Under the pieces are notes generated by a model. It searched no databases, had not been told where the DNA came from, and was given only the letters and a program-made list of their open reading frames with translations. The position numbers were made by a program, and so were the translations under genes. Source: Acidobacteriota bacterium (GTDB lineage: Bacteria; Acidobacteriota; UBA6911; RPQK01; JAJDTT01). Taken from it: a stretch of DNA of 64,000 nucleotides. The first letter of the stretch is position 1. The number at the start of each line of letters is the position of its first letter. Positions 1 to 59,394 of the stretch are shown here, piece after piece. The DNA lies in contig OZ253580.1 of NCBI GenBank assembly GCA_965263035.1, positions 1,888,001 to 1,952,000 on the forward strand. The letters are read 5' to 3'.

Positions 1-70
1 GGCTCGGCACTGAAATGTTGTGTGAACCTTCACAGTATATATGTTAATACATCTGCATGACGATCCATCA

Positions 71-89
71 AGTTAGATATATAAGCCCC
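71..89 (-). mobile_element. Terminal inverted repeat of an IS1595-like element extending left of the window
   Basis: Reverse complement GGGGCTTATATATCTAACT is 17/19 identical to the TIR at 58003-58021. It abuts a 5'-truncated sulP frame, and CTTCTTTT (90-97) is the candidate target duplication. Confidence 0.7.
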
Positions 90-57379: not shown

Positions 57380-57639
57380 TTTTTTTGACGCCCTGGTTGC
57401 CCGGCACGCCGCCGTGCTCGATCCCTTCCAGTCGGTGCGGGGAGTGCGGCATCCGTTCGGGCAAGGGTGGATCCCCGAGGTGAGGATCCGCCAGGCCCGG
57501 AAGGTTTTCGCCTACATCGAGGGGGCCGGGCTCATCGATGCGTCCATGGTCTCGCCCCCGTTCCGGGCTGGAGAGCGCCGCTTCATCTCACTGACCCATC
57601 GGCGGCTGTCGCCTCACGCCAGACCACAGAGGGACATAA

Positions 57640-57673
57640 GGAGAAGGGGACAGTTACTTTCTCTACGAGTTTG
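57640..57673 (-). repeat. GTAG-hairpin repeat, copy 4
   Basis: Plus strand GGAGAAGGGGACAGTTACTTTCTCTACGAGTTTG. Confidence 0.8.
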
Positions 57674-58002
57674 TGGGGACTCCACCCAGGGAGCGGACTC
57701 GGAGCCGGCGCCCGAGCGAGTACAATTTCAACAGCGGATGAGATTCAAAGCGATCCTCAAACGCAGATGTCCACGATGTTTGCGTGGGCAGGTTTTCGCC
57801 TCGGCATTTCGTATGAGGCGGAACTGCGGTGTCTGCGACCTGAGATTCGAACGTCACGAACCAGGGTACTTTGTGGGTGCACTCTACTTCGCCTACGGAT
57901 TGGCGGTGCTGTTGGGCACTCCTCCTGCTGCCTATCTCTGGTGGCAGGGATTTTCGATAGAGGTTAACGCGCTTGTGATCACGGGAGAACTGATTATTTT
58001 AT

Positions 58003-58120
58003 GGGGCTTATATACCTAAGTGCCATTGGCATACAGTTCTGGCACCACGCTTTCCCCAACGAGATACGTTCCGGTGCCCAGGGCAAGAACCCCAGCCCTG
58101 AGAATGTTCAGGGCGGCATT
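58003..58120 (-). ncRNA. Putative omegaRNA/reRNA scaffold overlapping the tnpB 3' end
   Basis: Minus-strand stems CAGGGC/GCCCTG, GGCACC/GGTGCC and TGCC/GGCA follow NAALNI, where TnpB scaffolds normally lie. The 5' boundary is unknown. Confidence 0.55.
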
Positions 58121-59191
58121 GTGGTCCCTGTCCATTCCAAGTCCGCAGGCCCTGCACCGGAAGGTTTCGCTCCGTCCTGGATCGTGGCGGGCGCCGCACC
58201 GGTGGCAGTCCTGCGATGTATATGCGGGATTCACTTCTACGAACTTCCGACCGGCCCATTCTGCCTTGTACTGGAGTTGATTCCGCAGAAGCCCCCATGA
58301 TTGCGTCATTATTTCTCGATTCAGCCCCTTCTTCTTCGAGCCCTTCGTCACCATCCCTTGGATGTTCAGTTTCTCCACAGCGATCAGACCGTGCTCACGA
58401 ATGATCCTGGTGGAGAGACGATGGCAGGCATTACGGTTTCGGACCGATTCCCGGTGACGGAGCCGAGATAGCTGTACGATCCGTTTCCGTCTGGTCTTGG
58501 AAATCTTCTTGCACCTGGAGACCTTTCTCTGCTGCTTTCGGATCTCCCCCCAGTCCCGTCGATTCCGTTCGATCCTCTCACCCGTGGACAGCACCGCTCG
58601 CTTGCGGACTCCCAGGTCGATCCCCACCGAAGACTCGCATTTCGGTAGCGGCGGCTTCTCCACCTCGTAGGTCAGGTCCACATACACCCGGTTCGGCTTG
58701 CGGACAATCCGCAACGCTTTCAACGGGCATCCGTCCGGCAACGGCCGGGAGGGAAATATCCGGATCGTCGGAAAGCCCTTGGGCCGGATGGCGTAGCCCC
58801 GAGCGCGCTTCTTCACCAGGGTCGCTTTGGGGTCGACGACGTCGATGGTCTCCATCCTCGCAATGGGCCGGAATCGAGGATACCCCGGCTTCTCCCCCGC
58901 CTTGCAGCGACGGAAGAACGCCTTGAAGGCCCGGTCCAACCGAACCAGCATCCCCCGCTCCGCCTTGACCGCCACTGACCCGAGCCCCTCCGGATCCTCC
59001 TTCCTTTTGGAGGTCAACCCCTTCATCTGATCGTACAGGGTCACGCCGCGTTGCTCGGATTCCCAGGCCGTCCTGTGTTCCTCCAGTGCAGCGTTGTACA
59101 GCCGATTCAGGATGGACCTCACCCCGTCCAACCGCCGGATTCCACCCTTGGACAGCTTGGCTCTGCACTGGATAGTTGCGTGGCCTTTCAT
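58016..59191 (-). CDS. tnpB: RNA-guided endonuclease TnpB family protein
   Basis: LYNAALE, GYPRFR, RuvC-I GIDLG, RuvC-II IAVEKL, zinc finger CHRC/CRAC, RuvC-III DRDHNAALNI. Confidence 0.93.
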   Translation of the reverse strand: MKGHATIQCRAKLSKGGIRRLDGVRSILNRLYNAALEEHRTAWESEQRGVTLYDQMKGLTSKRKEDPEGLGSVAVKAERGMLVRLDRAFKAFFRRCKAGEKPGYPRFRPIARMETIDVVDPKATLVKKRARGYAIRPKGFPTIRIFPSRPLPDGCPLKALRIVRKPNRVYVDLTYEVEKPPLPKCESSVGIDLGVRKRAVLSTGERIERNRRDWGEIRKQQRKVSRCKKISKTRRKRIVQLSRLRHRESVRNRNACHRLSTRIIREHGLIAVEKLNIQGMVTKGSKKKGLNREIMTQSWGLLRNQLQYKAEWAGRKFVEVNPAYTSQDCHRCGARHDPGRSETFRCRACGLGMDRDHNAALNILRAGVLALGTGTYLVGESVVPELYANGT

Positions 59192-59394
59192 GGTAGGAAT
59201 TGTAAACCATCAGCCTGAATTCTCGGCACTTAGGCATATAATCCCCTATTTTATCTCCCTGGATCTTTCAGTACTCTCGAATCCTGTTCCTGCACTTGGA
59301 CCAGCTATTCGATCCCACCTAACTCGGGTGCGCTACTCAAGCTGCCCTACCAAGCTAGCCACGTCGCGGTAGCCCACAGACTCCCATCCACACG

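Follow-up and report, generated by a model that had tools for sequence, protein, structure and literature searches.

We describe a mobile element of 1244 bp whose only gene is tnpB, located near the end of a stretch of 64,000 nucleotides from an Acidobacteriota bacterium (contig OZ253580.1 of assembly GCA_965263035.1, positions 1,888,001 to 1,952,000; the whole of this analysed stretch is called the window hereafter, and its genome G000). Judged from its terminal inverted repeats (TIRs) together with the duplications of its target site, the element is a non-autonomous insertion sequence (IS) of the IS1595 type, in which tnpB replaces the transposase gene. The last ~100 nt of its tnpB strand are, by comparison with relatives, a conserved and covarying RNA made up of two hairpins, a long-range stem, a terminal hairpin and a pseudoknot. 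Taken together, we consider it probable that this IS1595-type element is moved in trans, that it encodes an omegaRNA with a scaffold reaching exactly to the tip of the TIR, and that TnpB defends the insertions by means of a target-adjacent motif (TAM) consisting of a G at position -1.

A mobile element with IS1595-type ends

The element is mobile, and it is not of the IS605 kind. Its two TIR arms (58003-58024 and 59225-59246) are 22 nt long and 91% complementary, and the target duplication is the AT-rich 8-bp direct repeat TATTTTAT, present at both flanks of the element (57995-58002 and 59247-59254). A second copy in the same genome (G000:C1:1310799-1312042) differs from the window copy at 2 of its 1244 bases and has an 8-bp duplication of its own, ATGAATAT; approximately nine more copies or fragments, of 71-78% identity, are found in this genome. 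Empty alleles, composed of flank, a single duplication and flank, are present at 7 loci in 6 related genomes, and one contig in each of the RNA libraries X15 and X16 contains the joint 57994>59247, where 1252 bases are skipped and 8 letters are common to both sides. The insertion interrupts a host gene whose uninterrupted orthologue (L110:1409-1930) encodes 173 aa. This orthologue is DUF983-like at most (E 0.0019, 19 bits, under the 22.6-bit Pfam cut-off), and a Pfam scan of the interrupted host open reading frame (ORF) gave no match.

The initial annotation of this DNA had remarked on the lack of a long subterminal hairpin of the IS605 kind, had located the tnpB stop codon inside the TIR, and had proposed a guide starting ATAAAATAATCAGTTCTCCC that would match the empty allele. 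Each of these observations is borne out: TIRs and 8-bp duplications are present instead of IS605-type ends, the stop codon is inside the TIR since 58016-58018 falls within the arm 58003-58024, and the guide start and its match are correct at the 7 loci described above. That annotation had missed the IS1595-type ends, as well as the pairing of the last six TIR bases with the loop of an upstream hairpin as a pseudoknot.

To characterize the ends, the same genome was searched for the TIR, allowing up to 6 substitutions. This search retrieved eight 1762-bp elements with the TIR GGGGATTATATACGAAAGTGCC, identical to that of the tnpB element at 19 of 22 bases, and additionally three 1.5-kb and two other related elements; 8-bp AT-rich duplications flank 12 of the total of 13. 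The ORF of the 1762-bp elements encodes a 316-aa transposase that matches DDE_Tnp_IS1595 (4e-38) and transpos_IS1595 (1e-52), and in a related metagenome-assembled genome (MAG) the 5' TIR of the tnpB element is identical to the IS1595 TIR at 23 of 24 bases. The element was assigned to the IS1595 type, and not to IS605, because its TIRs and 8-bp duplications match these resident IS1595 elements. An IS1595 transposase is co-resident in trans in G000 (8 copies) and in genome G007, and is present in 25 of 41 genomes of the order (a count that includes the unpublished genome G016). We infer that this transposase is the partner of the tnpB element from its co-residence in G000 and G007 only.

Several related structures were observed in the course of these searches. 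The eight 1762-bp IS1595 copies (e.g. L228:1150-1862, G000:C1:1741312-1742024) carry ~700 bp of passenger sequence 3' of the transposase gene, in which we recognized by eye a DNA-methylase-like N-terminal fragment, a 146-aa frame of restriction-endonuclease-type appearance and a 65-aa frame. Another tnpB element of the same superfamily, of the U type and ~75% identical, occupies positions 1-89 of the window and extends upstream to G000:C1:1886862; its TIR is TCAAGTTAGATATATAAGCCCC (window 68-89), its duplication AAAAGAAG, and it has a G at position -1. Within the window's genus, a 298-bp derivative (L209, G008:C344, oriented 1345-1643) retains the 5' TIR and the full omegaRNA region without tnpB, and the flanking 8-mers at its two ends differ. 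A Caldilineaceae element (L050) bears an additional nested omegaRNA/TIR end in its 5' untranslated part, ~100-190 nt inside the 5' end.

The tnpB gene and its expression

The tnpB product shows the profile matches, the acidic triad and the zinc finger of a TnpB protein, from which its activity is predicted. It matches the Pfam families OrfB_IS605 (PF01385; 3e-18, 66.5 bits against a cut-off of 30.5) and Cas12f1-like_TNB (PF07282; 4e-26, 91.3 bits against 26.3), and the NCBIfam model guided_TnpB (NF040570; 3.4e-64, 217.5 bits against 100). The IS200/IS605 TnpB model gives 166.8 bits, under its cut-off of 425. Residues 31-376 align to chain 8bf8_A of ISDra2 TnpB (E 2e-32). In this alignment D192, E273 and D356, which we take to be the RuvC catalytic acidic triad, correspond to D191, E278 and D361, and CHRCG/CRACG corresponds to CHDCG/CPNCG, the two CxxC pairs of a zinc finger. 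Both the three acidic residues and the zinc finger are invariant in 10 TnpB sequences, down to 41% identity.

A TACAAT hexamer resembling a -10 box is placed exactly where the initial annotation had reported it, 7 nt before the ATG, and no Shine-Dalgarno-like run is found between the two. Hexamers of this type recur 6-7 nt 5' of the ATG in T-type copies (GACAAT in L037, TACAAT in L091). The promoter scan did not call the TACAAT site (59204-59199). Leaderless expression of tnpB from this motif is plausible.

A conserved RNA at the 3' end of tnpB

An omegaRNA-type scaffold running over the 3' end of tnpB into the TIR had been suggested in the initial annotation, together with covariance modelling across homologs as a check. 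A count of covariation on 28 sequences supports such a scaffold, as do the frozen synonymous sites described below. For 28 distinct copies, all from one genus, we aligned the final 160 nt and counted pairing in a structure that we had specified. Pairing was observed in 96.4% of 840 cells, against 31.5-49.4% in six slid controls; 11 pairs were changed on both sides, against 1-2 in the slid controls, and the covariation score was 0.253, against 0.083 or less. None of 500 shuffles attained the observed pairing or score; this shuffle control overstates the support, because the 28 sequences are kin.

Two of the stems read in the initial annotation, CAGGGC/GCCCTG and GGCACC/GGTGCC (S2 and S3, Table 1), are present and covary across relatives. 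In S2, 99.4% of cells are paired and three of the six pairs change on both sides, with GGCGGC/GCCGCC in the L212 lineage. The pseudoknot between the S2 loop and the last six TIR bases is paired in 96.4% of cells, with 2 pairs changing on both sides, and the loop covaries with the TIR tip: in L040 and L042 the loop reads GGGAAUU and the end AAUUCCC. A similar pairing was seen by eye in the Caldilineaceae copies (12 distinct sequences from one genome), where the hairpin loop reads GGGAAU and the end AUUCCC. Helices 4, 5 and 6 are paired in 99.4%, 98.8% and 100% of cells, respectively. At one position of S3 the pairs seen are C-G, U-G and U-A, while the next position has G-C and A-U, and three of the four pairs of helix 6 (S4) change on both sides, giving the variants UCUC/GGGA, GGCC/GGCC, GGGC/GCCC and GGUC/GACC.

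Between S3 and the pseudoknot strand, a terminal hairpin with its 3' arm in the TIR is found in 8 of 9 lineages, in each case at this position and with differing arm sequences. A smaller UGCC/GGCA hairpin, TGCCAATGGCA (58021-58031), had been read here in the initial annotation. It is present in the sequence, but it is not a conserved pairing and sits in the loop of the UGUAUGCC/GGUAUAUA hairpin. Two further candidates were rejected. The first, an upstream helix pairing 58130-58126 with 58113-58109, appeared compensatory in the L037 lineage and failed in the L212 lineage; it was dropped from the model. The second, a complementarity of 7 nt that links the flank (57985-57992) to the element (58034-58040), was raised by an Rfam match to mir-146 and was taken as chance because it is absent at the second copy.

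Synonymous constraint provides independent support for the scaffold RNA. Counted over identical residues, codon identity reaches 0.85-0.89 within the final ~25 codons of tnpB, compared with 0.45-0.79 elsewhere, and amino-acid identity over these same codons drops to ~0.65. A second and milder rise in codon identity (0.68-0.79) was noticed at residues ~298-332 (window ~58200-58300), well upstream of the scaffold; high-depth RNA-library contigs also accumulate at 58203-58336.

Contigs from RNA libraries cross the TIR-flank junctions, extending into the flank of the second copy by 45 nt (X15) and 16 nt (X16), and into the flank of another site by 53 nt (X17) and 67 nt (X18). In some runs contig depth is higher at 58002-58137 than over the gene body; this was not used, since the depth of contigs is no basis for ranking the regions of a gene.

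Target sites of the tnpB elements

Insertions were oriented by tnpB, and 35 of 45 rows were kept, the other 10 being dropped for two 8-mers that differ at more than one base. As a control, 21 autonomous IS1595 copies were oriented by their transposase. The base directly 5' of the upstream duplication copy on the tnpB strand, position -1, is the most conserved position of the target site (G 34/35, C 0/35, 1.81 bits), whereas autonomous IS1595 copies have G at 8 of 21 sites. Within the tabulated set, all 14 Caldilineaceae copies have this G. Eight further Caldilineaceae copies contribute three sites with a matching duplication, all three with G (37/38 in total), and a single site reconstructed from the loose ends of contigs in RNA libraries likewise has G at -1. 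The difference from the autonomous copies is significant (35/36 against 8/21, Fisher test, p = 1e-6).

The duplication itself is also biased, to a lesser extent. Its first base is A at 30 of 35 sites, compared with 10 of 21 in autonomous IS1595 by hand count (31/36 against 10/21, p = 0.005); the second is W in 35/35 and the third A in 25/35. At position +1, past the downstream copy, C occurs in 9 of 35 sites and is unbiased (4/21 in autonomous IS1595). Unmatched duplications were found in 15 of 53 examined copies (including L029, L052, L060, L069, L070 and L252-L256, in G041 and at other loci), and 13 of these 15 keep a G at the -1-equivalent position, nine bases 5' of the 5' TIR. Unmatched 8-mers at copy ends are what recombination between copies would be expected to leave.

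In the filled allele, the position equivalent to -1 is the invariant terminal C of the TIR. The G itself then lies ~1.25 kb from the omegaRNA; only when the allele is empty is it directly next to the guide match. We read the -1 G as the key base of a predicted TAM and as a putative switch between self and non-self, with the first-base A as a lesser TAM signal. The initial annotation had called the host sequence before the empty-allele target, CAGGGAG, arbitrary. This view is not supported: no other base of the site is as conserved as the last G of that sequence, at 1.81 bits. Among the three options it had proposed, self-avoidance through the TIR fits these data, the TIR ending in C where 37 of 38 sites have G.

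Table 1. Features of the tnpB element and its surroundings, in window coordinates; RNA features, guide and TAM base are predictions.
Feature	Position	Strand	Description	Basis
Whole element	58003-59246	minus	1244 bp, non-autonomous IS1595-type IS, sole gene tnpB	TIRs, duplication, second copy, empty alleles
tnpB	58016-59191	minus	391 aa, apparently intact predicted RNA-guided nuclease	stop codon 58016-58018
TIR, tnpB 3' end	58003-58024	unstranded	contains stop codon, 3' arm of terminal hairpin and pseudoknot 3' strand	
TIR, tnpB 5' end	59225-59246	unstranded		19/22 bases as in TIR of resident 1762-bp IS1595 elements
Duplication copy adjoining omegaRNA end	57995-58002	unstranded	predicted guide nt 1-8 (ATAAAATA, minus strand)	single copy in empty alleles
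Duplication copy, tnpB 5' end	59247-59254	unstranded		
Position -1	59255	minus	G on tnpB strand, directly 5' of upstream duplication copy; candidate key TAM base	37/38 sites
-10-like hexamer	59204-59199	minus	TACAAT, 7 nt 5' of ATG	sequence reading
omegaRNA scaffold core	58003-58100	minus	~98 nt, 3' limit at TIR tip	covariation and synonymous constraint
Hairpin S2	58079-58100	minus	CAGGGC (58100-58095) / GCCCUG (58084-58079), loop UGGGGUUCUU	helix 2
Pseudoknot	58093-58088 with 58008-58003	minus	5' strand GGGGUU in S2 loop with AGCCCC, the last six TIR bases	helix 3
Stem S3	58041-58078	minus	GGCACC (58078-58073) / GGUGCC (58046-58041)	helix 4
Helix inside S3	58069-58067 with 58049-58047	minus	ACG/CGU	helix 5
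Hairpin S4 inside S3	58064-58061 with 58056-58053	minus	UCUC/GGGA	helix 6
Terminal hairpin	58009-58035	minus	UGUAUGCC (58035-58028) / GGUAUAUA (58016-58009), 3' arm is TIR	minimum-energy fold
Predicted guide	57983-58002	minus	duplication and flank, 20 nt shown	inferred from scaffold end at TIR tip
Interrupted host gene	57560-58002 (start approximate) and 59247-59322	plus	5' part and 3' part	intact orthologue L110:1409-1930

Proposed mechanism and alternative explanations

In the mechanism that we favor, an IS1595 transposase supplied in trans would cut and paste the element. The tnpB transcript would be processed to an omegaRNA with a scaffold ending exactly at the TIR tip, and the guide would begin with the 8-nt duplication and continue into the downstream flank. 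Together with its omegaRNA, TnpB would recognize and cut the empty allele, where the guide match has a G before it, and repair by recombination with a filled copy would restore or spread the insertion. The filled allele would be spared, the terminal C of the TIR occupying the position of the G. Insertions without the G would go undefended and be rarely seen, and we read the near-fixed G as survivorship of insertions open to defense by TnpB.

The same omegaRNA could be read in another register, akin to that of Fanzor or IS607 systems, in which the first 1-3 bases of the duplication, or the whole of it, belong to the scaffold, the TAM is approximately G-A-W-A, and the guide has its first base within the duplication or beyond it. 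We hold this to be unlikely, while recognizing that the bias at duplication bases 1-3 in tnpB orientation (A 30/35, W 35/35, A 25/35) exceeds that of the mirror positions T8, T7 and T6, that the first-base A is enriched over autonomous copies (31/36 against 10/21, p = 0.005), and that, in the excerpt of Yoon et al. used here, the duplication lies within Fanzor1 scaffolds and a flanking base within IS607 scaffolds (PMC10711439). Against such a register, the pseudoknot has a 3' strand that extends up to the last TIR base, so that the guide would be placed directly after it, and a variable 8-nt duplication cannot pair with a conserved part of the scaffold. With the entire duplication as the TAM, the enzyme would see no difference between filled and empty alleles, and the -1 G would be without a role. 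A different account of that G, which we regard as improbable, leaves the omegaRNA real, with some other or a relaxed TAM, and attributes the G to an asymmetric preference of the mobilizing transposase or to the placement of ends in the transpososome. Since IS1595 sites are AT-rich 8-mers mostly bounded by G/C, the transposase certainly accounts for some of the signal. The bias is nonetheless lacking from autonomous elements that have nearly the same TIRs (G 8/21 at -1, C 4/21 at +1). It persists in the Caldilineaceae copies (14/14), in which at least the first 15 bases of the two ends are identical, and the G is guide-adjacent only when the site is empty, lying ~1.25 kb from the omegaRNA when it is filled.

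The structure might instead be a stabilizer of the mRNA 3' end, an element of translation control or a transposase-binding fold, with tnpB as a passenger. The absence of an Rfam match would agree with this. Its position, its size and its end-adjacent pseudoknot all fit the descriptions of TnpB reRNAs in the same excerpt (PMC10711439), copies that are only 41-48% identical retain the catalytic residues and the zinc finger, and the -1 G asymmetry would be left unexplained; we consider such a role very improbable. Finally, the sub-cut-off match to the IS200/IS605 TnpB model (166.8 vs 425 bits) and two weak Y1_Tnp matches in the genome (39 and 36 bits) could point to an ordinary IS200/IS605 element of the IS1341 type moved by a Y1 TnpA, its inverted repeat being a coincidence. 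The duplications and empty alleles refute this proposal, to which we attach next to no probability: 38 insertions have 8-bp duplications and TIRs, both of which are absent from the IS200/IS605 family according to the part of a 2026 review consulted (PMC13565253), and the Y1_Tnp matches are partial, unlinked to the tnpB copies and near none of them.

Several points weigh against the reading that we prefer, that of an omegaRNA ending at the TIR tip and a TnpB that defends insertions through the -1 G. As to the RNA, the 28 aligned sequences belong to one genus and many are near-identical; the covariation of the pseudoknot comes from few lineages (two sequences with double changes and one with a one-sided change), and four L212-type sequences mismatch at one of its pairs. 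The upstream helix dropped from the model was only 85% paired, with 3-7 sequences unpaired at four of its five pairs. In stability, the single-sequence fold does not significantly exceed shuffles (z -1.65; the terminal hairpin alone gives z -0.27), and no Rfam family matched at E up to 10 beyond the chance hits mir-146 (0.97) and SMCR2_1 (4.7), in a release, Rfam 15, that may hold no TnpB omegaRNA family. The junction-crossing RNA-library contigs show neither ends nor strand, and they may derive from DNA carry-over. As to the target, the autonomous control is small (21 sites), and it is unusual for a TAM signal to be concentrated in a single base. Known TnpB TAMs are up to 4-5 nt long, e.g. 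TTAC and TTGAT, in the part of the review consulted (PMC13565253). The target-site data do not fix the first base of the guide, the bias at duplication bases 1-3 allowing the scaffold register discussed above. As to the transposase, 66 matching TIRs are present on the Caldilineaceae chromosome G041, where no IS1595 DDE match above the cut-off was found (best 24.7 bits against 27), and in G005, with at least four recent copies of the tnpB element, only a broken IS1595 gene was found with the query used.

A more far-reaching scenario is one that we advance tentatively, as possible rather than likely. A TnpB lineage would have moved from IS605/IS607 hosts into an IS1595-type element, where it re-used the TIR tip as a pseudoknot strand, adopted a one-base G TAM and gained self-protection from the TIR C, and a homing drive on empty alleles, by deciding which insertions persist, would explain the 97% of surviving copies with G.

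Distribution among relatives

In a protein scan with one genome per species, 286 relatives were retrieved and the best 80 kept; 37 of these 80 have an end motif of the TATAAGCCCC or TATAATTCCC type. The carriers are Acidobacteriota MAGs, at 76-98% protein identity, a single Caldilineaceae chromosome, which holds ~25 tnpB copies at 45-48%, and one Gammaproteobacteria MAG, at 39%. DNA of the omegaRNA occurs in 6 of 41 genomes of the order, all six within the window's genus. A metagenome scan gave 535 relatives, the best 80 of which are at most 42% identical. TIRs with a duplication were absent from all of the best 80 of these 535 metagenome matches and from more distant relatives, and a generic scan found them at 1 of 122 loci, L091 only.

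The Caldilineaceae chromosome also contains deletion derivatives of 222-706 bp in which both TIRs are preserved along with part of the omegaRNA region (G041:C1; L251, L253, L255 and L257; e.g. 3260110-3260331). The tnpB elements and these 222-706-bp derivatives may have multiplied on this chromosome without a cognate DDE gene being found there. In SAR202 and Dehalococcoidia MAGs, three loci (L044, L046 and L047) have a tnpB that is 45% identical, a different inverted repeat (GAGACGATTTCA...), duplications of 6-7 bp and no G at -1. Their sequences suggest a second, independent capture of tnpB by another family of TIR transposons.

Implications

The element presents a bacterial parallel to eukaryotic Fanzor elements, as a cut-and-paste element with TnpB only and a scaffold drawn partly from its own TIR. 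If the TIR-tip pseudoknot, the one-G TAM and the homing drive hold true, it would constitute a prokaryotic counterpart of Fanzor1 with a compact, near-TAM-free nuclease; a one-base TAM would give this 391-aa enzyme an unusually wide target range. It also offers a tractable bacterial case of the adaptation of an RNA-guided nuclease to transposons that leave duplications and are not scarless. The element family is well suited to such work, with many recent insertions, natural empty alleles, a scaffold that has its last six bases in common with the transposase site, and a TAM prediction that is both simple and testable. Moreover, the TIR would have to serve protein coding, RNA pairing and transposase binding at once, and this three-way constraint would clearly illustrate how codes can overlap.

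Comparison with known systems

The closest reference for the protein is ISDra2 TnpB, with which it shares a near full-length alignment, the acidic triad and the zinc finger. Presumably the two RNAs are also alike in layout, the ISDra2 omegaRNA having a scaffold that overlaps the tnpB 3' end and stops at the element boundary and a guide taken from the flank, as predicted for the IS1595-type element. The two elements differ in that ours is without a Y1 TnpA, subterminal DNA hairpins and a fixed penta- or tetranucleotide target, and has TIRs and an 8-bp duplication. Furthermore, the last bases of its scaffold are those of the transposase-recognized TIR, and its TAM-like signal is one G, not of the TTGAT type. 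With the IS1595 family the element shares TIRs starting GGGG/GGGA-TTATATAC, 8-bp AT-rich duplications and the presence of autonomous DDE_Tnp_IS1595 copies in the same genome; it differs in having tnpB and an omegaRNA instead of a transposase gene, and in an orientation-specific G that is missing from the autonomous copies.

TnpB genes associated with DDE transposases have been described. In the portions of Altae-Tran et al. 2023 consulted, six DDE-associated TnpB branches have inverted terminal repeats, and solo TnpBs with the same ends imply mobilization in trans (PMC10691335). As in our element, TnpB lies between inverted terminal repeats with its 3' end less than 250 bp from one of them, and mobilization in trans is proposed. 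The main text of that study names IS630 only and not IS1595; the branches are defined in its supplements and may include IS1595. Scaffold structure, a TIR pseudoknot and a TAM signature are absent from the portions of its text consulted. The excerpt of the 2026 review lists the DDE pairings as ISL2, IS630 and IS1031, calls prokaryotic OMEGA-DDE systems rare, which it attributes to rigid target recognition, and describes IS200/IS605 and IS607 elements as being without TIRs and duplications (PMC13565253).

The excerpt of Yoon et al. 2023 places the TIR and the duplication inside Fanzor1 reRNA scaffolds and reports a guide-adjacent pseudoknot in the IS607 TnpB ISXfa1 (PMC10711439). A pseudoknot next to the guide is described there for TnpB reRNAs and is predicted here for the IS1595-type element. 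Fanzor1/Fanzor2* elements, as given in the same excerpt, resemble it in being non-autonomous TIR elements with a target duplication, with the nuclease as the sole gene and the TIR within the reRNA scaffold (PMC10711439). They differ in that the protein here is a bacterial one of TnpB size, that a pseudoknot is predicted here and reported absent from Fanzor1 reRNAs, and that the duplication, part of the scaffold in Fanzor1, is here most simply the start of the guide (PMC10711439). Our literature searches (TnpB with IS1595; duplication, DDE and TAM; sponge and Acidobacteriota), whose scope excluded subscription journals and supplements, returned no description of this arrangement. Within that scope, supplements lying outside it, TnpB in DDE/TIR elements is known, and what appear to be new are the IS1595 host, the pseudoknot formed with the TIR tip and the asymmetric, one-base target signature.

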